Part shown: in pieces, positions 12,816-61,764 of the stretch
Position numbering within the stretch: position 1 is the stretch's first letter
Layout of the letters: every line of letters starts with the position of its first letter
NCBI GenBank assembly: GCA_951406725.2
Contig: OX597831.1
Location: forward strand, 58,218,001-58,282,000
Direction: 5' to 3'
Length of the DNA: 64,000 nt
DNA from: Octopus vulgaris
Lineage: Eukaryota
Notes under the pieces: generated by a model
What the model was told of the DNA's origin: nothing
The model's database searches: none
The model's input: the letters and a program-made list of their open reading frames with translations, nothing else
Program-made: the position numbers and the translations under genes

Positions 12816-13155
12816 ATTCTGTTGTGTCTGGGGAGAGTCATTTTCTTTTTGTGTCTTATAATGTAACACACTCACCGGTAAAATTTCCACTTATTTCTTA
12901 TTTTTATTTTCCTAAAATTTTCGTTGCGTCTTGCAACATTTTCCAGAGTCAAGACTATTGAAAAGGTTGCAAGACGCAACGAAAATATTTGGAAAATAAA
13001 AATAAGAAAATAAGTGGAAATTTTACCGGTGAGTGTGTTAAATTATAAGGCTCGAAAAGAAAATGACTCTCCTCAGACACAACAGAATATGCTTCAACAC
13101 ACGAACTCATATAAAGAATCTTGCAAACCAAATCCAAAAACGAAAAAATTGATAT
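12816..13155. mobile_element. Fold-back element: 135-bp inverted arms plus ~70-nt tail, with hammerhead-like motif
   Basis: 12816-12950 is approximately the reverse complement of 12953-13088; TTGAAAA-g-GTTGC aagac GCAAC-GAAA; decayed relative at 22770-23285. Confidence 0.75.
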
Positions 13156-14516: not shown

Positions 14517-14565
<49 letters not shown>

Positions 14566-14567
14566 AT

Positions 14568-14779
14568 ATATATTATAGAGGGCATTACTATACTTTTGAC
14601 TTTAAGAGTCCTTCCTAGCGTGTGGCATTTATGTATAGTAATGCCCTCTATATAATATAAATAAATAAATATATTTAAGTGAAGAAATTTGTGGATTTTT
14701 TCTCTTATGAGGTTTTTCACGCTAACTACTTGATAAATTCTTATAAAGATTTATCCTATTTTTAAATTTTAAATTTAAC

Positions 14780-15460: not shown

Positions 15461-15539
<79 letters not shown>

Positions 15540-16037
15540 GTGACGCATATTTGCCATTTGAATATGGCTAACCCATAAGGGTGGATGCTACTGTAGTTTG
15601 TAGCCCCAGGAAGATATCTCCTCCAGCTGGCTATAGACACACTATCTGTGTCCTCTCAGTATTTGTGAAGGGGAGTCATCCTCCCCGTCTTCAACTCATG
15701 ATACACACGTATCCGAGTTTCAAGGTGTTTACCTTTCATAAGCGTGTGACAATCATGGTTGTCGACGAGAAGTCAGATCCCTTCACAAATACATATACTT
15801 TTTCCAGTGTCGATTGACACTGATATTGAAAAAGTGAAATCAAACAATGATAACTCTCAGAGCGAGTTATAAACAGTAGCGGTAACACATCGTGACGCAT
15901 ATTTGCCATTTGAATATGGCTAACCCATAAACTACAGTAGCATCCACCCTTATGGGTTAGCCATATTCAAATGGCAAATATGCGTCACGATGTGTTACCG
16001 CTACTGTTTATAACTCGCTCTGAGATTTATCATTGTT
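15540..16037. mobile_element. Retrozyme-like element: 352-nt monomer with 39-nt terminal redundancy plus inverted arm, within (TA)n
   Basis: 15540-15578 = 15892-15930; 15931-16037 is the reverse complement of sequence across that junction; degenerate hammerhead on - at 15704-15748. Confidence 0.85.
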
Positions 16038-16045
16038 ATATATAC

Positions 16046-16087
<42 letters not shown>

Positions 16088-16222: not shown

Positions 16223-16273
16223 TCATAAGCGACGGAGGAAAAGGACTGAACGGATGCTGATATTCTATGTATC

Positions 16274-16362
16274 GCTGTTACGAAGTTTGACTGAAGAGGT
16301 CCAATAGACCGAAATCCCCATGATGTAGGAATTCCAGCGCCTATGTCAGACGAATAACAGTG
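16274..16362 (+). ncRNA. Partial hammerhead-like motif
   Basis: gtttga-CTGAAGA-GGTC caata GACC-GAAA ... tcagac; outer stem CGCTGTTA/TAACAGTG; stem III and cleavage triplet unresolved. Confidence 0.4.
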
Positions 16363-17326: not shown

Positions 17327-18095
17327 ACCACCACCACCACCACCACCACCACCACCACCACCACCACCACCACCACCACCACCACCACCACCACCACCAC
17401 CACCACCACCACCACCACCACCACCACCACCACCACCACCACCACCACCACCACCACCACCACCACCACCACCACCACCACCACCACCACCACCACCACC
17501 ACCACCACCACCACCACCACCACCACCACCACCACCACCACCACCACCACCACCACCACCACCACCACCACCACCACCACCACCACCACCACCACCACCA
17601 CCACCACCACCACCACCACCACCACCACCACCACCACCACCACCACCACCACCACCACCACCACCACCACCACCACCACCACCACCACCACCACCACCAC
17701 CACCACCACCACCACCACCACCACCACCACCACCACCACCACCACCACCACCACCACCACCACCACCACCACCACCACCACCACCACCACCACCACCACC
17801 ACCACCACCACCACCACCACCACCACCACCACCACCACCACCACCACCACCACCACCACCACCACCACCACCACCACCACCACCACCACCACCACCACCA
17901 CCACCACCACCACCACCACCACCACCACCACCACCACCACCACCACCACCACCACCACCACCACCACCACCACCACCACCACCACCACCACCACCACCAC
18001 CACCACCACCACCACCACCACCACCACCACCACCACCACCACCACCACCACCACCACCACCACCACCACCACCACCACCACCACCACCACCACCA
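17327..18095. repeat. Perfect (CCA)n trinucleotide array, ~255 units
   Basis: Read directly; explains the poly-H/G/V/W ORFs. Confidence 0.97.
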
Positions 18096-25695: not shown

Positions 25696-26080
25696 TGTCC
25701 CTTAGTGGCTGACGATATGTGCATCTTTGATCACAAGCAGAAGTAGCGGGGAAGCATCATAGCCCTGTGTTGAAAGGAATTCTTGGAGGCTTGGATAACT
25801 CACCTTTGGAAACATGGGTGGTTCGTTTAGCATCCTTAAACAATCCTTATTCAGGGACCTTTTGAGCGGGATGGGCTACTCGACCAGAAGAAAATTCTAA
25901 CTGGGCCCCACCTGCAAGGTCATGCGCTGTTTATCTTGATATGAGATCACCATGTCACGCACATATGGTTGTGATGCATACGCCTGGTGTACCCTTATCA
26001 GACGGGTAGTCACGATGGTATACTGGGCTTCGCATATTTTATCCCAGTGTCACTTTGATGGTATGTGCTGCTCTCTCACT

Positions 26081-26081
26081 C

Positions 26082-26146
<65 letters not shown>

Positions 26147-26172
26147 TAATAATAATGATAATAATAATAATG

Positions 26173-26247
<75 letters not shown>
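26081..26247. repeat. (AAT)n microsatellite (upstream target of the RLE-LINE)
   Basis: Read directly from the sequence. Confidence 0.95.
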
Positions 26248-26250
<3 letters not shown>

Positions 26251-29143
26251 TTGAATCATTGCGAAGGGAGATATCAATATTAACTGAGCTAATCTCTGGA
26301 AATGATGTAAGATCAAGAAAAGGCAGGAAGATTGTGAGAAAATATGGACATTCAACAAGAGAAGAACTAATGTCAGCGAAAGAAACACTTAAACAAAAAG
26401 TTCAAGCAAAAGCTCAGAGAATACGCAGATTTGAGAAAATAATCAAATTCTACAAACAAAATAAGATGTTCAAATCCAATGCCAAATCATTTTACAGGGA
26501 AATAGGGAAAGAAAAAATAACCATTGAAAATCCACCCCTAATGGAAGAAGTTGAAAACTTTTGGAAGGGGATCGGGAGTGATGAGAAACCATACAATGAA
26601 AATGCAGAGTGGATCAAACGCACCCAAGATGACTACAACAATCTACAAGAACAGGTATGGGAAGACATCTCAATCGCCGACCTAAGGAGGGCACTAACGA
26701 AAGCTCATAAGTAGAAATCCCCTGGTATTGATAGAGTACCAAATGTCTGGCTCTCATCACTCTCGTCCGCACACAAAATGTTAGTAATACTATTTAATAG
26801 TATTATGAAAGACCCGAAAAAACACCCCATTGGATGGCAAATGGTATTACTTACCTCCTTCCCCAAAATAACAAAACGAAAGAACTAAAAAACTACCGGC
26901 CTATAACATATTTATCTACTACCTATAAGATTTTGACATCTATTCTAGTAGAGAAAACATATACGTTTATGGAAGAGAATAACCTCTTTCCCACTGAACA
27001 AAAAGGATGCAGACGAGGCTCATACGGATGCAAAGATCAGCTCCTAATTAATCGCATGATCCTTGAGAACTGCCATAACAAGCGCAGAAATCTCAGCTCT
27101 TCATGGATTGATTATAAAAATGCCTTTGACAGCATACCGCATTCGTGGATTCTGAAATCGCTGGACATTTTCAAAATTTCTCCTGTGATTTCAGATTTTT
27201 TAAAGTATAATATGTCACTATGGAACACGAAGCTCCAATTATATCATTCTAATGGAGTATTGCGCTCAAACAACATTAGCATAAACTGTGGAATTTTCCA
27301 AGGTGACTCACTTTCACCACTAATTTTCTGCATAGCACCAACACCTCTCTCAAGTGAACTGAAAAGAACAGGATATGGCTACAAAAGTGACAACAGGAAA
27401 ATAAGCCATCTATTTTATATGGATGATTTAAAGCTATATGGCAAAAATGATGAAGAGCTTGAAGGATTATTACATACCGTGAAGGGATTCAGTGATGATA
27501 TCGGGATGGAGTTTGGCCTTGAAAAGTGTGCCAAAGTCACTTTTAAGAAAGGGAAATTGGTAAAGTCTAGTTCAATCGAATTAGATGTCGAAACAGTAAT
27601 AAAGGAACTTGAGCAGGAACAAACCTATAAATACCTAGGAATAAATGAAGGCTCTGGTATCCAGCATGCAAGCATGAAAGAGAAGGTTAGGAAGGAATGT
27701 TATAGAAGAGTTCGAGCAGTCCTGAAGTCTGAGCTGAATGCATATAATAAGGTGTTAGCCATAAATTCCTTAGCAGTACCAGTTGTTCTTTAAAGCTTCA
27801 ATGTGCTTAACTGGAATACCAGTGAAATAATGAAAATTGACCGAAAAATCCGCAAGCTACTGACTTGTAATAAGATGCACTATCCAAAGGCAGAGGTGGA
27901 TCGACTTTACCTTCCCAGAGCTCAGGGAGGTCGAGGTTTGATCCAGCTTGAACTTACATACAAAACCACCACAATCGGACTGGCCAAATACCTTGAAGCA
28001 ACCAACGATTGGATGCTAAAACTTGTTGAAAAACATGAAAGACTGAAAAGACTTCACTCTATTCTCAAAGAGAGCAAAACATTCGCTGCTGATCTCTTAG
28101 ATACCCACCATATTGATCAGGCTGAAGGAGATGCGCCAACTGCAGCTGCAAAGAAAATAAAATTAATTGCAAAGACAAAAGCACATGAAAATTTAGCTAG
28201 CAGATGGGAACAGAAACCTCTCCATGGCAAGTATGTGGCCCGTAGCAAACAAGCTGATGTCGACCAGAAACACACGCACCAATGGTTACGAAACTTAGGG
28301 CTAAAAGCAAAAGCAGAGAGTGAAGGTTTCATATTAGCTGCTCAAGACCAAAGCTTGTTAACCCGGAACTACCAAGCCAATTTGATAAAAAATGGAGCTG
28401 ACCCAAAATGCCGATTCTGTAACGATGAGATTGAAACAATAGACCACCTAATCTTAGGGTGTAGAGTCTTAGCACCTGCAGAATATAAAGCAAGACATGA
28501 CAGAGTCGGCCAGTATTTACATTGGACAATATGTCGGTATTATAAAATCAAACCCGCTGACAAATGGTATAAACACCATCCTGAAGCTGTGACTGAGGGA
28601 GAAAATGTGTCGATTCTATGGGACTTCCCCGTACAGACCAACAAGACTATAAAAGCTAATAAACCGGATATTATTATAAAAGATCAGACAAAAAAGATAT
28701 GTTTATTAATTGACATAAGTATCCCTTGCGATCACAATCTAGCGGCGAAAGAATTTGACAATTTTAGTAAATATAAAGACCTGCTAATAGAAATTGAAAA
28801 AAATGTGGCATCTCAAGGCGACTACAGTACCAATGATTGTAGGATCTCTAGGAATGATAAAAAAAGGTACTGAAACCTATTTGAAAATGATTCCAGGCTT
28901 ACCATCCCTACAGGAAGTGCAAAAAATCGTATTAACTGGAACGGCTCATGACTGAGAAGAGCATTATTGCTGTGAAAACAACATCCATCCATGAATTTAT
29001 TTATTTATTAATATTTAAATACATATTTTATCTGTGAATTTGCGTGTGTAATCTGGGAATACATACAATGAGCTTCTCTGCCCTAGGTGTATGAAAAACA
29101 CTCGGCGAGAAACGGAAGAAAATTTGAAGAAAGAAGGAAAAAC
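26248..29143 (+). mobile_element. R4/Dong-like RLE non-LTR retrotransposon, 5'-truncated, with stops and frameshifts
   Basis: RT motifs NYRPIT, EQKG, WIDYKNAFDS, GIFQGDSLSP, LFYMDDLKLY; CCHC (CRFC..ETIDHLILGC), RHD, KPDIII and K..KY of a restriction-like endonuclease; flanked by (AAT)n. Confidence 0.93.
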
Positions 29144-29279: not shown

Positions 29280-29424
29280 TAATAATAATAATAATGATAA
29301 TAATAATAATAATGATAATAATAATAATAATAATAATAATGATAATAATAATAATGATAATGATAATAATAATAATGATATAATGATAATAATAATAATG
29401 ATAATGATAATAATAATAATATTG

Positions 29425-29493
<69 letters not shown>

Positions 29494-29515
29494 GTAATAA
29501 TAATGATAATAATAA
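29144..29515. repeat. (AAT)/(GAT)/(AGT) microsatellite between the two RLE-LINEs
   Basis: Read directly from the sequence. Confidence 0.95.
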
Positions 29516-29519
29516 TGGG

Positions 29520-31253
29520 ATGAGCCAGTCCAGTAATGGGATGAGCCAGTCCAACAGCATCAACATCAAACGAGGCATCTTTCAAGGTGACTCCCTCTCT
29601 CCATTACTTTTTTGCATGGCACTGATCCCACTCTCAAACGAATTGGATAGTACCAGATATGGGTACAAAGTTTTTAGTAAATTAATAAACCATCTTTTCT
29701 ATATGGACGACCTAAAGCTGTTTGCCAGGAATGACCAAGAGCTAGAAGGGCTGCTAACAACTGTTAAAGAGTTTAGCAATGATATCGGAATGGATTTTGG
29801 CCTTGATAAGTGTGCTAAAGCAACTTTTGTAAGAGGCAAGCTCAGGCAAACAGCTTCTGTTAAATTAGATATTGACACTACCATCAAGGAACTTGACCCA
29901 CAGGAAAGTTACAAATACCTAGGAATCAACGAAGGAGATGGTATACATCATGCTACTATGAAGGAAAAAATAAGAAAGGAATACTATAGGAGAATAAGGC
30001 TTGTACTGAAGACTGAACTCAACTCCAAAAATTGCATTGAGGCCATAAACACCCTGGCACTTCCAGTAGTCCAGTACAGTTTTAATATCATTAACTGGAA
30101 CATTACGGAACTCCAACGCTTAGACAGGAAGACAAGAAAGTTACTGACATCCAAGAGCATGCACCACCCTAAGGCAGATGTAGACCGCTTGTACCTACCT
30201 AGAAGCAGCGGGGGGAGAGGAATGATGCAATTAGAGCTGTGCTATAAGACCTCTACTGTAGGAATGAACAGGTACCTATCTAGTACAAAGGACTGGATGC
30301 TGCGACTTGTGTGCGAACACGAAAGCAACAAAAAGCTGCATTCTATTGTCAAGGAAGCTTATAAGTTCGAAAGGGAACTAGACATTAACCTTGAATCAGA
30401 TGAAGAGCCGGAAACCACTGCTACCAAGCAAGCAAAGCGAATCAAGCAGACTGCAAAAAAGAACGGGCAGAATCAAATTGAGAGGCGTTGGAGCCAGAAG
30501 CCCCTGCATGGACAATATATTATCCGAAGCCAAAATGCTGATGTAGACCAAGCAACAACCCATCAGTGGCTGAAGAGCTCTGGATTGAAAGCAGAGACTG
30601 AAGGTTTCATAATGGCAGCACAAGATCAAAGCTTGTTTACCAGAAATTACCAGGCTAACGTTCTCCGAAACGGTACTGACCCTAAATGCAGATTCTGCGA
30701 CACATTTGACGAAACGATAGACCATCTCGTTTCGGGATGTCCTGTGCTGACACCAAACGAATACAAAAATCGCCACGATAGGGTAGGACAGTATATACAT
30801 TGGAAGATATGTAAACACTACAAATCCGACACTCCTGCTAACTGGTATGAACACCATCCTCAGCCAGTTGTTGAAGGTAAAGATGTCACCATCCTCTGGG
30901 ATTTTCCAGTCAACACTGACAGAACGATCAAGGCTAATCGACCAGACATAATTGTTAAAGACAGGGAAGAAAATACCTGCAGACTAATAGAAGTAAGCGT
31001 CCCCACTGATAAAAATGTATCTGTCAAGGAATTTGACAAACTTAGTAAATATAAGGACCTGGAAATCGAAATACAGAGGATGTGGAATCTTAAAACAAAA
31101 ACTGTTCCTGTTATTGTAGGTGCCCTAGGTATGATAAAAAAGGGATGTCAGAAACACCTAGACAATATCCCTGGAAAACCATGTCTCAAGGAAATCCAAA
31201 AGATTGTGCTAACAAGTACTGCCCACATCCTTAGAAAAACCCTATCAATGTAA
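29520..31253 (+). CDS. Uninterrupted C-terminal RT plus RLE endonuclease ORF of a second 5'-truncated R4/Dong-like LINE (element ~29516-31405)
   Basis: 577 aa open: RGIFQGDSLSPLLF, LFYMDDLKLF, YKYLG, CRFC..ETIDHLVSGC, RHD, RPDIIV, EFDKLSKY; (AAT)n follows the 3' UTR. Confidence 0.93.
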   Translation: MSQSSNGMSQSNSINIKRGIFQGDSLSPLLFCMALIPLSNELDSTRYGYKVFSKLINHLFYMDDLKLFARNDQELEGLLTTVKEFSNDIGMDFGLDKCAKATFVRGKLRQTASVKLDIDTTIKELDPQESYKYLGINEGDGIHHATMKEKIRKEYYRRIRLVLKTELNSKNCIEAINTLALPVVQYSFNIINWNITELQRLDRKTRKLLTSKSMHHPKADVDRLYLPRSSGGRGMMQLELCYKTSTVGMNRYLSSTKDWMLRLVCEHESNKKLHSIVKEAYKFERELDINLESDEEPETTATKQAKRIKQTAKKNGQNQIERRWSQKPLHGQYIIRSQNADVDQATTHQWLKSSGLKAETEGFIMAAQDQSLFTRNYQANVLRNGTDPKCRFCDTFDETIDHLVSGCPVLTPNEYKNRHDRVGQYIHWKICKHYKSDTPANWYEHHPQPVVEGKDVTILWDFPVNTDRTIKANRPDIIVKDREENTCRLIEVSVPTDKNVSVKEFDKLSKYKDLEIEIQRMWNLKTKTVPVIVGALGMIKKGCQKHLDNIPGKPCLKEIQKIVLTSTAHILRKTLSM

Positions 31254-36420: not shown

Positions 36421-36452
<32 letters not shown>

Positions 36453-36493
36453 GAGTGTATATCAGCGTTTAGATCTGTATTCTATTTTTGAGA

Positions 36494-36565
<72 letters not shown>

Positions 36566-36652
36566 GTATATATACACTCACTTAAAAACAGAATACAGAT
36601 CCAAACTCTGATCTCCACTCACACACACACACACGTACACATGTATTTTATG

Positions 36653-36687
<35 letters not shown>

Positions 36688-36905
36688 GCGCGTGTGCTCA
36701 TACACATCTATTTCACGGTCTCACACGCATAACTTTTATTTCAAACACGTTATATTAAAGACACGACTGTGTTCAAATTCAATCTTTCCTATAAAAGAAT
36801 TTTCATATTTCCGCTGTTATTTGTTTATATTTGAAGGAATAAGCGCTAGAGACAACCTGCGTCACTGAAACGGTCATCCCTTCATCTAAATTTGTGTAAC
36901 GATTA

Positions 36906-37266
36906 TGTAAAGTATAGAAGCCATCTTATCCTGGCTAACCACATTGGGGAGGGGGTGTTACTGTAGCTTTATAGCCCCAAGAGATCGTCGTCTCTAGCTG
37001 GCTTTAGACACAATATCAGTGCCCTTGGAGTATTTGCAAAGGGAGGCCATCCCTTCCTCGCAAACCTGAGTGATACGCTCGAACTAGTTTCGGGGTTTTT
37101 GTCCCTTGTCAACGGGCGGTAACCAGCCAGCTAGAGACGACGATCTCTTGGGGCTATAAAGCTACAGTAACACCCCCTCCCCAATGTGGTTAGCCATGTT
37201 AAGATGGCTTCTATACTTTACATTATCGAGCGATTACTGTTTCAATCTCATTCTGAGATTTAATTA
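36906..37266. mobile_element. Fold-back retrozyme-like element with 13-bp TSD
   Basis: 36900-37003 is approximately the reverse complement of 37125-37229; TSD TGTGTAACGATTA at 36893-36905 and 37267-37279; homologous to 15540-16037. Confidence 0.85.
37076..37118 (-). ncRNA. Minimal type I hammerhead ribozyme, U3-A8 variant, GUU site
   Basis: CGCCCG-TTGACAA-GGG acaaaaac CCC-GAAA-CTAG-TT-CGAGCG; palindromic stem III AACTAGTT. Confidence 0.7.
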
Positions 37267-37354
37267 TGTGTAACGATTAGGTTCCCGTAAATTTCGTAGT
37301 TTAGTTATCGGATGCTGTCCCTGTGTATTAAATTTTAATTTGGAATTTGTCAGT

Positions 37355-40740: not shown

Positions 40741-40827
40741 TAAAACATTAATGAGTGCGTGTGTTACATAAATAATATTTTCAGGTTTAAATAAAAAGAT
40801 ATACATATATATATATATATATATATA

Positions 40828-41095
40828 TGTAAATATGATATGTGACAATTATTCGGTAGCCATGATAAAACTCCGAGTTTCGGATGTCAGGGCGGAAACC
40901 CACGCCGCCATCTCTTCAGCTATGTGGCGATCGAAAAAAAACTGAAGAGATAGCGGCGTGGGTTTCCGCCCCGACATCTGAAACTTGGAGTTTTTTTCGT
41001 GGCTACCGAATAATTGTCACATATTATATTTACAGATAAATTCCGCTATGTACATAATATCGAGGTCTCTTTCATTCTTTTGTTGTCTTACCATT
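40828..41095. mobile_element. Fold-back hammerhead element: 92-bp inverted arms plus ~60-nt tail, between (TA)n and (CT)n
   Basis: 40828-40919 is approximately the reverse complement of 40942-41034; each arm carries CTGAAGA-GAT..ATC-GAAA-CT(C/T)GGAG-TT. Confidence 0.85.
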
Positions 41096-49397: not shown

Positions 49398-51801
49398 ATT
49401 TTTGTATTACCTACAAGGGGCGAACAAAGAGGGGACAACACAATATGATTTGGGGTCAGACTTACGTATGATAAATTACACAAAAATGAAATTTAAAAAT
49501 TTACACAAAATGACAATATATATTAGAAACGAAAAATTCGAATGATGGAACAGACCGGAAGACATTACGGATGGAGTGGGGGCGGGTTTAGCTCGGATCT
49601 CACGAGCCCCGCCTCGCCACTGATACTTGGGTTTCATCCTGTTTTACATTTATGAGGTACCATCCATACGCAACATCCGTGCTACATTCTTCCATCGTTT
49701 TTCAAACACTTTCTCAGTCAGGCATTTTCTCTCCAGCCCTATTTTCCTTTTCAGGTGGAATATGAAGTAATCCATCAGTCCAGGGCCAGAGATGAAATTG
49801 CCTGACTCTATACTTTTCAGCCTCGTCTTCCAAATCACCTCTCTCGCAATTGCAACTACAACCAGAAAACAATTCTTGCCTTCTTTCGAGAGGAAATCTG
49901 GTGGGTCAATTTTTACAATAGACTCAGTTGACAGCTGTACATTTCGTGTGTTTGACAACAGTTGTTCGGCATAAACCCACACCTCTGACACCTCCGGACA
50001 TTGAACAATAGCATGCGGAACGGTTTCTCTATCCCGCTCGCATCTTGGACATGTCGGACTGCCTCGGCCCCCATGCCTTGCGAGTTTGTCCCGAACAGGT
50101 AGAGCTCCTCTGTTACACTGCCATGCCAGAGACTTCTGAAAGTTGTCCAGGGTCTTCGGCCCGAATGTACGTTGGAACAGACTGGCCAGCTGATTATCAT
50201 CGAGACCTAGGGCTTCCCCTAAAGTATTGTCACATTGCGCTTCTACCAGCCCTTTATAAAAGAATGTGGTGGAACCCCCACCGCAGGCGTTGCCCGAGCG
50301 ACGGAATAGCAGGAGAGTCTTGAGACACTCCGTATACCATGTGCCCAGTTTCGATCTTCGATTCAACCAGGTTTCCCATCCACTGAAACTAGTGAACTTG
50401 GGAAACATCAGTTTTGCCAGCGGAGACCACACTCGTTCACCATCTAGGTAGAGCCACTGATGCCTCAACCTCAGCACATGTCTGTGCATCAACAGCCAAG
50501 GCATCCCTAGCCAACCCTTTAACGGTTGTTGACAGCAAGTAGAGCGTTTCACAAGCGGTTTCCAGTCTCTCCACAAAAAGTGAAAGAGCTGTCTTTCCAG
50601 CTTGATCGACCACGAATCAGAGCAAGGAACGACGGATAGGCGGTAGGTGATGACCGATCCGATGAACATATTGGTCACCTCCGCCCTCCCTGGCTCAATT
50701 TTCGCAGCAATGGCTCAAGAGCCATTACATACAAAAGTGGGGAGAGGGGACACCCTTGACGAACCGAGTGCTTGAAGCTGAGCGGCTTGGATAAAAAGCC
50801 GTTCACCCGAACTACCGAGTCGGTGTTGTTATAAATGTCAATGATCCACCTGAGGAAGCTAATACCTAGGCCGAACTGTGCCAGAACGGACAGCAGGTAA
50901 TGATGGTCTACTCTATCAAAAGCCTTTGATTGGTCTAAATCAACCACTGTCCCTCCTTTGCAAGAATCATTATGAAACCATTCTACAGTGTACTGTAAAA
51001 CATGGAGATTATCCTGAATGGGTCTACCGGGAAACGGCACATGCCAATGCCTTCCTGATCAAGCCATCCGCTACACGCGCAAATCTTTTCGAGTACACTT
51101 TGGCCAAAATCTTCAACTCTGTGTTTAGCAGAGTGATGTGCCGAAAATTATCAATGCAGTCCCCCGTTGTTCGGGTCCTTTCTGACAACCATCACCACTC
51201 CCCGACGCACAGATCTGGGAATGAACCCATTCTGCTGCCAGTTCGCGTAGACATTCACCAGCAGGTGCCCGAACAAGTCTGGCATACTCTTATACAGTTC
51301 ATAGGGTAGATCATCCAGTCCCGGTGCTTTACCCGCGTCGCGGTTCGCCATAGCCTCAATTACCTCCTCAGGCGTGATCAGCCTTTCACAACACTCCGCG
51401 TCAAGCTCCGAGAGGCGCGGCAGCCCGGCGAGGAAATCCGTTAGGTCCCTCTTACTATCCGGTCCGCTTCCCCCACTTCGAAAAGCTGGGCGAAGTGCTC
51501 CTGAAAGACCTCACGGCTCGGGCTCACGGCTCGGGCTCGGGCTCGTTTATCAACTTATCTCTTTGGTTCATCAAAGATCGAATTGTGCCATCGTTGCCAC
51601 GTTGGGCCTCCACCACTCGGGTCCATCCTGCTGCCTTGATTCCTTCACAACCCAATGTACGAATCCTGGCTCCAACAATGCAACCCATATATTCGGCTTC
51701 GAGATGCTGGTTTAACGCCAGCCTCTTGGCCGTCACCTGAGCTACAGAGCCAGATCCCATTGCTTCCTCCAAGTCCTTAGCTAATGATAATCCCTTCCTA
51801 T
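49398..51801 (-). mobile_element. Tx1/L1-like LINE, 5'-truncated, RT internally deleted
   Basis: KAPGLDDLPYELY, RHITLLNTELKILAK, DLDQSKAFDRVDH, SVRQGCPLSPLLY, and zf-RVT/CCHC CPRC..ETVPHAIVQC. Confidence 0.9.
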
Positions 51802-52203: not shown

Positions 52204-53304
52204 CTACTTTGATGATGAGCAGCGTCTGCTGTGACTGAACAGTCCAATTCTAGAGTGGCAGTCCCTGGTACAGTTGCTGCACACGAACATCGATGGGTAC
52301 GTGTGGGGTGTTGCTGCAGTTGTCCTCCTCCTCTCCCGCCTGTCCGACCACAGCTGTGCTCTCCTTTCCTCAGCCATGGAAACGCCTTTCCTCACTGTCC
52401 GACGCCAGGCAGAGCGGTCAGCAGCTGTTACCTCCCACGTGTCCACACAGATGTTGGCAGTCCTCAGGTTGCGCTTGCACACATCCCTATATCGTAGCTG
52501 TGGACGTCCCTTGGGTCGGGATCCCGTGGTGAGTTCGCTGTACAGGATGTCTTTAGGCATGCGACCGTCCTGCATGCGGCAGACGTGTCCGAACCAGCGC
52601 AGTCGTCTCCGCACGAGGAGGGCATGCATGCTTGGCATATTAGTCTGTTCTAGGATGACTCCGTTTGGTACTCGGTCCTTCCAGGAGATGCCAAGGATAC
52701 GTCGAAGACACCGCATGTGGAAGCCGCTGAGGCGGCATTCTTGCCGGGTGTATGTTGTCCAGCTCTCGCTGCCGTAGAGTAGAGTGCTCAGCACGCAGGC
52801 TCGGTACACTGCGATCTTGGTGGTTATTGCGAGCATGTTGTTTTCCCACACTCTCCTGGAGAGCTTAGCCATGGCAGCAGCAGCCTTCCCAATCCGTCTG
52901 TTCAGCTCCGGCTCGAGGGACAGGCTGCTGGAGACCGTCGATCTCAGGTAAGTGAACTCGTTCACCACCTGCAAGCTGTGGTCGCCGACACTGATGCTGG
53001 GGACCCCTCCGACGTCCTGGCCCATGATCTCTGTCTTTTTCAGGCCGATGGTAAGACCGAACTCTTGGCAGGCATCCGCCAGGGAGCTGACCAGCCTCTG
53101 GAGACCCGGCTGGTTGTGTGATGTTAGGGCGGCATCGTCAGCAAAGAAGATCTCTCTGATCAGCACCTGACGGACTTTGGTCTTAGCTCTGAGGCGCGCA
53201 AGATTGAACAATCCACCATCAGCCCTGGTGTGGAGGAACACTACGTCGTCGGACGTTCTGAAGGCATAGGACAGGACAAGGGAGAAGAAAATTCCGAAGA
53301 GCGT
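52204..53304 (-). CDS. Uninterrupted C-terminal RT ORF of a 5'-truncated RTE-clade LINE (element ~52161-53304)
   Basis: TLFGIFF..GGLFNLARLRAKTKV..FADDAAL..LLYGSESW..RLRWFGHV..GRPQLRYRD..CSNCTRDCHSRIGLFSHSRRC; the frame stays open upstream of the listed start, to 53304. Confidence 0.92.
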   Translation of the reverse strand, partial: TLFGIFFSLVLSYAFRTSDDVVFLHTRADGGLFNLARLRAKTKVRQVLIREIFFADDAALTSHNQPGLQRLVSSLADACQEFGLTIGLKKTEIMGQDVGGVPSISVGDHSLQVVNEFTYLRSTVSSSLSLEPELNRRIGKAAAAMAKLSRRVWENNMLAITTKIAVYRACVLSTLLYGSESWTTYTRQECRLSGFHMRCLRRILGISWKDRVPNGVILEQTNMPSMHALLVRRRLRWFGHVCRMQDGRMPKDILYSELTTGSRPKGRPQLRYRDVCKRNLRTANICVDTWEVTAADRSAWRRTVRKGVSMAEERRAQLWSDRRERRRTTAATPHTYPSMFVCSNCTRDCHSRIGLFSHSRRCSSSK

Positions 53305-53305
53305 A

Positions 53306-53408
<103 letters not shown>

Positions 53409-53415
53409 ATATATA

Positions 53416-54195
53416 TTATATTGTATAGAGGGCATTATTACACATAAATGCCACACGCTAGGAGGGACTCTTAAAATCATAACTACCAAATATAAACAAA
53501 TTGTACCGAATGCAATTCTCAAAGCGAGTCATTTAAAAACAGAATTTAGCTCCATATCACCTGTGATTTCGCAATTAACGCGTTATACGCGTCCCTTGCT
53601 CTCAGTGAAGCGAATCCCAAATATATCATAAATAAACAAAAACATCATAACAGGTGGACAACCATCGCCGTCATCGTAGTATATGGAAATGTTTACCCAT
53701 CATACATTTATGTAAATGGCGGGCTCTTTTGAATTGCATTTCGGGAGACAACGTGCTTTTTCGGAACAAATTTTAAAAATAGGATAAAATCTTAATAAGA
53801 AATCTTAACAAGATTTGACGGCGACGGTTGTCCACCTGGTATGATGTTTTTGTTTATTTATGATATATTTTGGATTCGCTTCACTGAAGAGCAAGGGACG
53901 CGTATAACGCGTTAATTGCGAAATCACAGGTGATATGGAGCTAAATTCTGTTTTTAAATTACTCGCTTTGAGAATTGCATTCGGTACAATTTGTTTATAT
54001 TTGGTAGTTATGACTTTAAGAGTCCCTCCTAGTGGGTGGCATTTATGTGTAATAATGCCCTCTATACAATATAAATAAATATTTTCAAAGAAAAAAATTA
54101 ACAGCTTTTTTCTCTTATGAGGTTTTTCACGCTAACTACTTGATAATTTCTTGTTAAGATTTCTTATTAAAATTTTATCCTATTTTTTAAATTTA
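53416..54195. mobile_element. Fold-back retrozyme-like element, ~473-nt permuted monomer, within (CTAT)/(TA)n
   Basis: 53416-53673 is approximately the reverse complement of 53816-54073; 53771-53813 is approximately the reverse complement of 54149-54191. Confidence 0.88.
53878..53941 (+). ncRNA. Type I hammerhead ribozyme, canonical core, AUA site (predicted cut after 53935)
   Basis: GCTTCA-CTGAAGA-GCAA gggACGCGTataACGCGTtaa TTGC-GAAA-TCAC ag GTGA-TA-TGGAGC; mirror copy at 53549-53611 has a 1-nt core deletion. Confidence 0.85.
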
Positions 54196-57589: not shown

Positions 57590-58090
57590 TCTCACTTATA
57601 AGGGAACCTTACATTGAGTATAAACTCAATATTTGGAAGGAACCATTTTTAACTCTGCTGGACTTTTGGACTTTACTCATAGGGTAGTGGAATATTACAT
57701 ATATACCATTCTGCCTAAAAAATGGATCTACAACTTCAATATCCCAACATATCTTGCATCTATTTTCTTTCCTCCACCTCACTCTCTATTTTGTATCACA
57801 TCTAAACTAACTATGACTTAACCATCCTCTCACACCGTCTCCGATGAAGGGATATAATTAATAAATATCCTGGAAACAACTGTAAGACTATCTATCTATA
57901 AATGTTCTAATATCTACACAGCCTTGTTTTTTTTTATCTCATTACGCAAAAAATTCTTAAATACACATACTGACATAGAACCAACGTTGAATCCCTTATT
58001 CGCAAAATTACCGAACCTGGAACTTAACTATGGTCTGTCTATATGGTCTGTCTATTACCTGACACCTTTGGGTCTCAATGACATCATTAT
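57590..58090 (+). mobile_element. Penelope-like segment with variant hammerhead (57837-57888)
   Basis: GTCT-CCGATGA-..-GAAA-CAACTG-TA-AGAC; homologous to 34643-34995; inverted fragment at 58347-58412. Confidence 0.65.
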
Positions 58091-58098
58091 CTCATATG

Positions 58099-58131
<33 letters not shown>

Positions 58132-58229
58132 GTATATGTGTGTGTGCGTGTGTGTGTATGCATATACAAGACATACATCTATATATCTATAGTTGAATAC
58201 ACACACAGACATATATGTGTCTATGTAGA

Positions 58230-58304
<75 letters not shown>

Positions 58305-58305
58305 G

Positions 58306-58336
<31 letters not shown>

Positions 58337-58785
58337 GATTCAGTTGAATATATATAATTAAGATTCAGTTGTAGATCCATTTTTTAGGCAGAATGGTATA
58401 TATGTAATATTCAACAAATTGAAGCACTAAGCCAATTCGGTATAGTCCTCACAGTTCCCAGTTAGGTGAACAGAATGTAAATAAATAACAAGGATGGCTA
58501 GGCCTCAATACATTACGGCCATTTCGAGCGGTTCCATTTAATCGATCACTGAAAACATTGCATCGATTTGAAAGAAACTGCTCTTCCCAGGTGCAGATGA
58601 CCATATAGATTTCCAACATGAAGGATAAATCATAAAAAAATACTAGAAACCAAAATAACTACATTGTTTCCTTATGTTATATTTGTGACAGAATGAGTTT
58701 ACAAAATAATCCATATCTTATCAAGCCTACTATAATTTAGAGAGTAGCAGAGGAAAATAACGGGGGGGGGGTCAAGAGATAGGTA

Positions 58786-59557: not shown

Positions 59558-61764
59558 GCACATGCGCAATTAGTCAGCTGCTTCCTGTACAGCCAGAGTG
59601 GACGCGAGTCAATCAGCTCTGTCCAATTAAAGAAAAAAGACCAAAAACGGAAAGTTGTCGAGGTAAGTGATTTTGTTTATTGTGAGTTGGGCATAATTTA
59701 TTGCGTGCCAATTATTATTTCAGTAGGTTGTGTCCAACTCTGAGACAATTCCACCTGCTCTCGGCGGCTGCCGTTTTTGTGTTCATTGAAAAAAAAAAGA
59801 AAAAAAACAGTGGAGGGGCGTATCCTCAGAATTCAATACAGTTACTGTGTTTGGGTTTGTTGAATTTATTCCCTTGTCAGAGTACTTCGCAAGAAAATTA
59901 TAAAAATAAGCCACTATTGGATTACCTTTCGGACCCATTTTTGTGGAGGTTGTGTTGCAGTTGCGGCGTTCTAGGTTCAACCCAGGCCGGGAGTACCGCA
60001 AGGCCAGAATATTTTTGCTGTGTTTTTTCTGTTTATTAACTTTCTTTTGAACTTCATTTAACCCCCCCCTTTTGTTTTTTTCTTTATTGCGACTTTCCGT
60101 TAATTTCTTCCCTTCTGTTGTGCTTTCTCCTTTTTGTTTTTTCAAAAATCTATCAAATTTTATTTGGACTTTTGAACTTTTTCTTCCTGCTTTTGAGTTT
60201 AATTTGAATATATTTTTAAAAAAAACATGGCAATGAAAAATAACAAAATTTTGGAGTGGGAAATCATACCACCTAAAAAGTGGTTAAAAGACCGTGAAGA
60301 TGGGACGGTGGTGTTGAGAACCTACTCCAAAGCACTTGACACCATCGCCCTATTCGAAAAGACGGCAATTGAAAAGGAGTTGGAAGAGTATTTGCCAACA
60401 ATTAAATTCATTTCCAGGGGTGTCAAATATGCAACGGTGTGGTTGCTATTTGACACCCCTGAAGAGGCTTGCAAATTTGCTAGCAAACCCTTGGAGGGTA
60501 AGGAAATCTTATTCCTGCCCACGTACAAAAAAAAGAAATTGATGAAAGCTTGGATCTGCGGACTGCCACCCGACATAGAACCCGAGTGGATAGAGGAGAC
60601 TATCCGCCGGGGTCTGGGTGACAGCGAAACTAAGCTCCTCAATGTAAAAGTTCTTCCTGCGGCTGCTTGGGTTGGGTCAAAAGCAATTTTGACCCTGTGG
60701 ACCCAATCAGCCAATCTGGTTCTTCCAGATTTTTGAAAATGGCCGGGTGCAGGTACCCGGTGATGCTTGAGGGTCGCCCCCCTAAGTGTCATCGGTGCTT
60801 GGAGTCCGGCCACATAAAGAAGAACTGTCCTCGGGAACAAAATAGGATCCCGGAACAGTTAAGTAAAACCCCTCTAGAAGAGGGAACGATAACGGCCGAA
60901 AAAGCAGAGGACTCCTCAAACAGAGGCCGAAAGAGGAAGGTGAGCAACAATGGGTGCTCACCAAAGGATAATAGGGATGAGGAGAGGAAGGCGAATCTTC
61001 CAGCCACGGAGGAGACGCACCCTCCCTCAGTTGAAAAGGGAAAAAAAAAGAAAAAGAGGAAGAAAAACGGGACATTACCGGCTGTCAGTGTAGCACCGGA
61101 ATGTCGCGGAACTACGTCGGTTGGGGTTGTGCCACCGACAAGAGAAGGAATACCGTTGGCGGAAACTGTGCCGCCAACGAAAGAACTGAATGTATTGGTC
61201 CTCTTCTATAGAGGAGGAGAAATTGAAAAAGTGATGGAAGAGCACTACAAGGGAGCACCTTTAGCCTTCACACAGGACCCCGAATGGCCTCCGCAGGTAG
61301 CTGTGGAGGCCGTGGCGTTCGACGTGACGCTAGGGCTAAAGGAGCTCAATGAAGATTATAACTTGGTCCCGGGCGACGCGAACTCGGAACTTGACTACGT
61401 TCTGAGGGAGGCGTGGTTGATGGTGGAGGGCGCGGGCACAAGCTATTTCGAGGACGATATGTATTATTAGTAATGGACTTAAGTCCAAAAATTGAAAAAT
61501 TGTAAGAGGATTAATACCTCGTTTTGTATTAATAATGGACTGCTAAGTCCAAAAATTGGAAAAATTGTAAGAGGTTTAATACCTCATTTTGTGTTCATCT
61601 TTTTTAAAAAGAATAATGTTTTAGAGAAGCAAAAGTCGGCGGGCGCTTTCTGTCTTCTCCCATCCTTATCATCTTTCATTATCATTCACCTCATTAATGT
61701 CCTCGTCCAGCCCGCAAAGCTAACTTAATCTGTGTACTGCCTTTATGGCAAATGTTTTGAAATA
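59558..61764 (+). mobile_element. ORF1-only non-autonomous retrotransposon (HAL1-like 'half-LINE') inserted in a family A SINE
   Basis: TSD AAGTAGCTT(T)GCTAAC at 59542-59557 and 61765-61779; SINE head lies to the left and the SINE remainder to the right. Confidence 0.85.
60227..61470 (+). pseudogene. L1/Tx1-type ORF1 (gag-like, zinc knuckle), one frameshift near 60730
   Basis: ..ICGLPPDIEPEWI..LVLPDF / LKMAGCRYPVMLEGRPPKCHRCLESGHIKKNCP (CX2CX4HX4C), then a basic low-complexity linker. Confidence 0.8.

Follow-up and report, generated by a model that had tools for sequence, protein, structure and literature searches.

We find that the 64,000-nt stretch of Octopus vulgaris DNA analysed here (the window; GenBank assembly GCA_951406725.2, contig OX597831.1, positions 58,218,001 to 58,282,000) carries at 15540-16036 what is very probably a single insertion of a non-autonomous, hammerhead-bearing, retrozyme-type unit of 352 nt mobilised by a Penelope-like element (PLE). 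The body beginning at 15540, the 39-nt partial tandem, the inverted 5′-truncated copy and the tail together match the published PLE signature. The insert and its borders consist of the following parts:

15464-15535, no strand: (TA)n microsatellite hosting the insert, read from the sequence and resuming beyond 16048
15528-15539, + strand: left target-site duplication, 12 nt, TATATATACAGA (12-mer count in the window)
15540-15891, RNA sense on the − strand: full 352-nt unit; 15540 is the body 3′ end and putative reverse-transcription start 1
15892-15930, − strand: start of a second unit, 39 nt, a 5′-truncated partial tandem resembling a pseudo-LTR (0 mismatches against 15540-15578)
15929-15930, no strand: 2-nt microhomology at the body/arm inversion junction (sequence comparison)
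15931-15988, + strand: inverted 5′-truncated copy of the unit 3′ end, 58 nt, corresponding to 15597-15540 with 0 mismatches
15989-16036, + strand: 48-nt tail, present on the inverted copy only, corresponding to 15891-15844 with 1 mismatch; 16036 is putative reverse-transcription start 2
16037-16048, + strand: right target-site duplication (12-mer count in the window)

With the unit 15540-15891 numbered U1-352, the + strand reads (TA)n CAGA, U1-352, U1-39, inverted arm, TATATATACAGA and further (TA)n, and in the RNA sense the tailed inverted copy comes first, followed by the 39-nt partial unit and then the full unit. An exact second copy of the 39-mer at 15540-15578 lies at 15892-15930, 352 nt away and without extension on either side, as a first-pass annotation of this DNA had pointed out; the window holds it twice on the + strand and once on the − strand. 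The arm at 15931-16036 is the reverse complement of U305-352 and U1-58 (15844-15891 joined to 15540-15597) with an identity of 105/106, and at the single mismatch, which falls at 15854, it is the arm that carries the base found in the wider repeat family. The annotation had described the arm as reading continuously across the unit ends, which is correct for 15931-16036, although 15598-15599, which it had included, are the microhomology and 16037 also belongs to the target duplication. That duplication it had overlooked. The 12-mer TATATATACAGA occurs twice in the window, exclusively at the left border of the insert and the right border of the arm, and CAGA follows 2 of the 250 runs of (TA)4 or longer in the window. 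Since the duplication frames body and arm together, both were inserted as one event. The locus amounts to 1.11 units with one hammerhead and an arm devoid of any, and no tandem units with two or more hammerheads were found at 15540-16036.

The annotation had advised a look for other copies, and public contigs from four runs (below) as well as the window itself supplied them. BLAST of the element against the window returned a single relative, a sister copy at 36906-37266 (36893-37279 with its target duplication) that the first-pass annotation had missed:

36893-37279, − strand: sister copy, ~70% identical
36893-36905 and 37267-37279: sister target duplication, 13 nt (sequence comparison)
36906-37124: sister body, 219 nt
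37125-37266: sister inverted arm, 142 nt, with a 44-nt tail
37076-37118, − strand: sister hammerhead with a U3-A8 core, one mismatch in stem I and a palindromic helix III

Body, adjacent inverted 5′-truncated arm, tail and a target duplication of its own (12 and 13 nt) are thus shared by 2/2 family copies in the window. In the alignment, the ends of the sister body and tail deviate from their counterparts in the 15540 copy by no more than 1 nt and ~3 nt, respectively, and the distance from predicted cut site to body end is 170 nt in one copy and 176 nt in the other. In both, ends lie 170-176 nt downstream of the cut site and then 44-48 nt further on. The permutation is not random, as both window copies end at the same two places downstream of the cut site. 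The sister copy is truncated before one full unit, and its target is AT-rich but not a microsatellite. Its hammerhead carries U3-A8 where the 15540 unit has C3-G8, a covariant reported in PLE hammerheads (PMC4209133). RNAalifold on the two copies found 2/18 and 9/36 pairs changed on both sides and missed stem I once, and with n=2, too thin a sample, covariation between the two window copies alone carries no statistical weight.

PLE insertions are 5′-truncated partial tandems, often with an adjacent inverted 5′-truncated copy at the 5′ end; one end bears a tail of 30-40 bp, and microsatellites are favoured as targets (Craig et al. 2021, PMC8557442). In AT-rich DNA a PLE protein cleaves both strands, and it starts reverse transcription internally at two sites, downstream of the hammerhead, between which the tail lies (Frangieh et al. 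2024, PMC11167929). With insertions of Penelope/Poseidon, Neptune and Naiad elements our insert shares the partial tandem, the inverted copy, the one-end tail, the two fixed ends downstream of the hammerhead and the AT-rich or (TA)n target, the latter represented by the (TA)n at 15464-15535, by one contig end in public run X18 and by AT-rich DNA at the sister copy. It differs from them in a unit of 352 nt as against kilobases and in containing no RT or GIY-YIG ORF, which sets it apart from an autonomous PLE, and Naiads, for their part, lack canonical hammerheads. The tails found here, 48 and 44 nt, are also longer than the quoted 30-40 bp, and the passages describing PLE insertions in PMC8557442 and PMC11167929 do not name target duplications among the traits of PLEs. 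Pseudo-LTRs and head-to-tail insertions are also formed by non-autonomous members of the Chlamys PLEs (MRC1 of Chlamydomonas, for example), but these are green algal and their clade lacks canonical hammerheads (PMC8557442). Among the 107 window frames of at least 75 aa, none matched a GIY-YIG family and 4 matched RVT_1, and the window yielded no autonomous PLE whose terminal repeat resembles the unit.

The unit bears a single ribozyme motif:

15704-15748, − strand: type I hammerhead; core 15742-15736, stem I 6 bp, stem II 4 bp, GAAA

The longest ATG frame of the 352-nt unit has 57 codons, even when the unit is read as a circle, in keeping with the first-pass description of a non-coding unit with one type I hammerhead. 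Cleavage is predicted between 15710 and 15709. The core, CUUAUGA, has U in place of G5 at 15740, and the contigs described below confirm that this base, already called mutated in the 15540 copy, is kept by the family; the annotation had overlooked a second lesion at 15712, where G16.2 is lost and the helix III pair 15.2-16.2 is broken. The 15704-15748 copy is therefore not an intact hammerhead (15740, 15712), and a strict hammerhead scan missed it because of the broken helix III pair. A relaxed descriptor (at most 1 mismatch in the core, stem I 6 bp, stem II 4 bp) matched at 2 places in the window and in 0/20000 base-shuffled units. Rfam gave no hammerhead match to the 15704-15748 copy at E up to 10, and nothing over the window reached a gathering score. 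The sister hammerhead aligns with Rfam Hammerhead_HH9 (RF02275), including the UUAC internal loop and the A-rich loop 2, but scores 20.9 bits (E 0.0029) against a gathering score of 52. Rfam miRNA matches on the hairpin and on microsatellites, likewise below gathering score, were set aside as matches to palindromes and low-complexity sequence. With one hammerhead, two lesions in it and none in the arm, the locus cannot release a monomer or circle by double cleavage, and it is most likely a dead end, its doubly damaged ribozyme having no partner.

The repeat family was then followed in public sequencing contigs. Of 24 runs listed, 20 contain part of the stretch and four (X2, X3, X13 and X18) were examined, with contigs aligned to 15540-15930 at ≥80% identity; X13 and X18, putative RNA runs, served as sources of sequence rather than as evidence of expression, and summed contig depth along the unit is not read as copy number or as a truncation profile. 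At this threshold, 4073 of 40.6 million contigs matched in X2, 3753 of 35.8 million in X3, 129 of 0.72 million in X13 and 106 of 0.53 million in X18. The family is high-copy. The G5 base at 15740 is present in 121180/121534 of the depth in X2 (42 contigs), in 116503/116651 in X3 (53 contigs) and in all depth in X13 (5 contigs) and X18 (4 contigs); the G16.2 base at 15712 accounts for 60550/60748 of the depth in X2 (28 contigs) and for all of it in X3 (25 contigs), X13 (3) and X18 (2). Both bases are thus intact in >99% of depth in 4/4 runs, and both are lost only in the 15704-15748 copy. In the family, then, the core is complete and helix III consists of two pairs capped by a near-palindromic loop, as reported for retrozymes of invertebrates (PMC7229834); hammerheads with such a short helix III are thought to cut as dimers (PMC4209133). 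Among 40 of 71 variant rows, the positions at which our copy departs from ≥99% of family depth are 15712, 15740 and 15854, two of them in the ribozyme; a ribozyme-dead RNA might be a favoured read-through template, but conserved sites are over-represented in such a variant list.

Changes at paired positions were also seen. Those at 15808/15819 have matching depths in X3, X13 and X18, with the predicted pair preserved; those at 15735/15722 are equal in depth in X13 and X18, keeping the helix, and unequal in X2 (1384 vs 732) and X3 (26251 vs 1353), where a change at 15735 alone leaves a G-U pair. Five strand-switch joints were found at other positions in the contigs, and loose contig ends at 15844 against (TA)n (X18) and at 15541 against AT-rich DNA; the joints, together with these loose ends, are compatible with constant start points and truncation at varying positions. 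Among the contigs listed, none spanned all 391 nt or held a locus with two tandem hammerheads; contigs are short, and 109, 117, 6 and 9 of them across the four runs overrun the ends of the stretch. A go-back joint 15930->15579 was absent from the joints listed, but the aligned stretch itself ends at 15930, where contigs overrun it, and we put no weight on this absence. Exact-pattern scans for the conserved core gave 0 matches in four runs over metagenome, viral and genome contig collections.

The RNA-sense strand of the unit is more stably folded than chance would give. The unit, of GC 42.3%, has a minus-strand minimum free energy of −139 kcal/mol (z −9.24), with none of 100 shuffles as stable, and the prediction includes one long element:

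15660-15792 (borders approximate), − strand: long rod of ~130 nt in the predicted fold, an extended helix I capped by the hammerhead

Such a rod would keep both ends of a cleaved monomer together. The size, base composition and fold bear out the earlier description of the unit as retrozyme-like.

Because the 391-nt cDNA extends across both the cut site and the unit junction, its template held more than one unit in register. To that extent the earlier proposal of a circle or tandem multimer is upheld, but the permutation does not show a circle, as an uncut linear multimer leaves an identical scar. The scar points to the class of mobilising enzyme, not to a circular RNA. We give an uncut linear multimer close to an even chance of having been the template, and consider a jump between cleaved monomers unlikely. 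A template in the form of a 352-nt circular RNA, traversed 1.11 times, is a sub-case of our best reading and a serious possibility, though one we place below even. A body that runs through both cut site and unit junction is what a circle would yield, and all three 39-mer copies share family-minority bases (15575, 15898), as one template would give, but a linear transcript of 1.2-1.25 units suffices for both cDNAs. The circular fold of the unit is stable (z −8.7 against 60 shuffles), yet with z −7.2 the + strand is well folded too, and stability by itself is thus no mark of a circle. The ribozyme core is conserved across the family, but the ribozyme at 15704-15748 is doubly damaged. Retrozyme units of the mussel Mytilus galloprovincialis measure 350-390 bp and accumulate as circles (Cervera and de la Pena 2020, PMC7229834), whereas for the Anolis PLE the main substrate is RNA that has not been processed and ribozyme mutants insert normally in vitro (PMC11167929).

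An improbable alternative is that the pieces are truncated pseudo-LTRs (pLTRs) of a long autonomous PLE, two successive truncated cDNAs having produced the 352-nt period by accident. Autonomous PLEs do carry type I hammerheads in their pLTRs, mostly single in truncated copies (PMC4209133), and at 15586-15588 contigs with different flanks join: 21 X3 contigs and 1 X13 contig share the unit above this point and have a different flank below it, so that part of the unit is shared, possibly with another family or with an autonomous element that has the same core. Against this, U304/U305 is the sole point at which a one-off join could have made the period, and a separate copy, a contig with 5 differences spanning 15805-15910, bridges exactly this tail/body point (15843-15844); the 352-nt order is therefore present in another copy. 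This was the one bridge with ≥31 nt on each side among 32 listed of 8114 pieces. A subfamily contig with 21-22 differences runs through 15692-15849 in register in two runs, no ORF >57 codons exists on the circularised unit, and a short closed unit, of ~475 nt, is likewise formed by an unrelated hammerhead family of the window.

We regard as very improbable a SINE-like unit moved by a LINE with a 5′ inversion through twin priming. Non-LTR frames that we take to be RTE-like, R4/Dong-like and Tx1-like occur in the window and provide LINE-type RTs, and target duplications of 12-13 nt with a 5′ inversion at microhomology are typical of LINE insertion. Twin priming, however, inverts an upstream part of the RNA and not a second copy of its 3′ end, whereas the inverted piece here is a second 3′-end copy with 44-48 nt beyond it in 2/2 copies, and the unit has no poly(A) or simple-repeat 3′ tail of its own. 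It is equally far-fetched that the locus arose by a one-off local DNA rearrangement (replication fold-back) or as an assembly artefact in a repeat-rich region, for although the flanks are microsatellite, with no aligned contig spanning the locus and the arm outside the aligned stretch, the target duplication frames body and arm as one insert, the same design recurs in the sister copy with corresponding ends, and arm and body differ at 15854 with the family base in the arm, unlike a collapsed or mirrored assembly.

A PLE-mediated insertion could have proceeded as follows, in a presumed order. Master loci would be transcribed into RNA of more than unit length, which the hammerhead, its critical bases observed intact in the family, could cut, probably as a dimer; by analogy with other animals, the monomers would perhaps be ligated to circles. 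A PLE protein acting in trans, presumably with RT and GIY-YIG endonuclease domains, would bind a folded domain near the unit 3′ end, and both strands of AT-rich DNA would be nicked ~12 nt apart by this putative enzyme, leaving the duplication seen at the borders. From each nick, reverse transcription would then start at its own fixed internal site, the two sites lying 44-48 nt apart. A first cDNA from U1, whose 391 nt and ends can be read at the locus, would pass the ribozyme site and enter the next unit for 39 nt; a second, from U305, would be the 106-nt arm, again with observed length and ends. The two would have been joined head to head through the 2-nt microhomology visible at the junction, by a presumed route.

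Other repeats in the window include a second, unrelated hammerhead family of similar design at 53410-54194, with microsatellite on both flanks. Its direct copy at 53812-54194 has an intact-looking type I hammerhead (53878-53941, + strand), and its inverted, permuted copy at 53410-53813 has the core minus one base. The latter reads the last 46 nt, 94 nt of new sequence and the direct-copy start, which closes the whole into a unit of ~475 nt. The two ends of this family lie ~115-120 nt apart, and it gave no Rfam hammerhead match. A shorter copy, ~82% identical, sits in (TA)n at approximately 14563-14776 and has a short inverted arm and a 5′-truncated body ending at the same two places. At 16270-16348 (+ strand), 230 nt from the insert, lies a degenerate type I hammerhead (Rfam HH9, 21.1 bits, E 0.0042) with G at the cleavage position of the HH9 alignment and no second copy in the window. 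Hammerhead inserts of this sort seem commonplace in the genome. Long-armed local inverted repeats, in which the relaxed descriptor detected no hammerhead, lie at 12816-13088, 40821-41041, 36452-36621 and 57687-58415; frames of broken non-LTR retrotransposons (RVT_1, zf-RVT and zf-CCHC matches) lie at 26010-28873, 29379-31253, 49650-51058, 52204-53316 and 60203-61470; and a very long (CAC)n-type triplet run of ~750 nt occupies ~17330-18085.

The retrozyme kind is already known, and 15540-16036 is a damaged copy of an abundant family. The family, as distinct from the 15540 copy, is probably an animal non-LTR retrozyme, with circle formation only a candidate trait. It shares with animal non-LTR retrozymes a non-coding unit in the range of ~150-450 bp, GC <45%, one type I hammerhead with a short helix III, strong self-pairing of the whole unit and many copies (PMC7229834). 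The locus itself differs in having 1.11 units with one damaged ribozyme instead of a dimer or multimer, and it falls outside the definition of an active retrozyme as two consecutive units with complete motifs (bioRxiv 10.64898/2026.07.22.740005). Its inverted arm, tail and target duplication are features that the accounts of animal retrozymes in PMC7229834 and 10.64898/2026.07.22.740005, in the passages drawn on here, do not describe. We rejected a plant-type LTR retrozyme, which needs paired LTRs, type III hammerheads and a 4-bp duplication (10.64898/2026.07.22.740005), in place of which we find one type I hammerhead, no LTR pair and duplications of 12-13 nt.

PLEs have been called 'a strong candidate' for mobilising animal retrozymes (PMC7229834), metazoan retrozymes may rely on them (PMC8969392; our comparison also draws on PMC6765202), and animal retrozymes have been proposed to be non-autonomous PLE sequences (Li, Clavereau and Pollet 2026, bioRxiv 10.64898/2026.07.22.740005). 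The last proposal argues from co-occurrence and from terminal-repeat homology in Xenopus and leaves the mechanism and non-vertebrate cases open; in its text neither 'tail' nor 'mollus' occurs, and 'inverted' occurs in a reference title only. The microsatellite load and the SINE-like repeats of the window would suit an octopus genome. The repeat annotation of Octopus vulgaris assigns 6.83% of the genome to Penelope-like elements, and 'ribozyme' and 'retrozyme' are absent from the main text as available (PMC13282606). In the literature as far as its accessible text extends, we found no description of hammerhead repeats in octopus, although supplements (figure S6 of PMC7229834, on further invertebrates, and those of 10.64898/2026.07.22.740005) may list the family, and likewise no description of a tail and inverted arm on animal retrozymes. 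New here are the 12-nt duplication that frames the insert and the sister copy with matching anatomy and ends.

We hold it possible, but rather doubtful, that the 352-nt circular RNA is itself the transposition intermediate, with the PLE RT starting at two fixed internal sites on the circle. If so, the dispersed copies would record directly, as scars of insertion, a connection between retrozyme circles and PLE enzymes for which the published passages cited above have so far offered co-occurrence and terminal-repeat homology only; and at least two unrelated hammerhead families (352 and ~475 nt) within 64 kb would make a large natural data set for setting circles against uncut multimers. The locus alone is unsurprising, and its value lies in being a clean insertion scar. 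That a hammerhead unit of 352 nt shows fixed ends, a tail, an inverted copy and a target duplication lends independent structural support to mobilisation by PLEs, and the two ends are the predicted start sites of reverse transcription on the unit.
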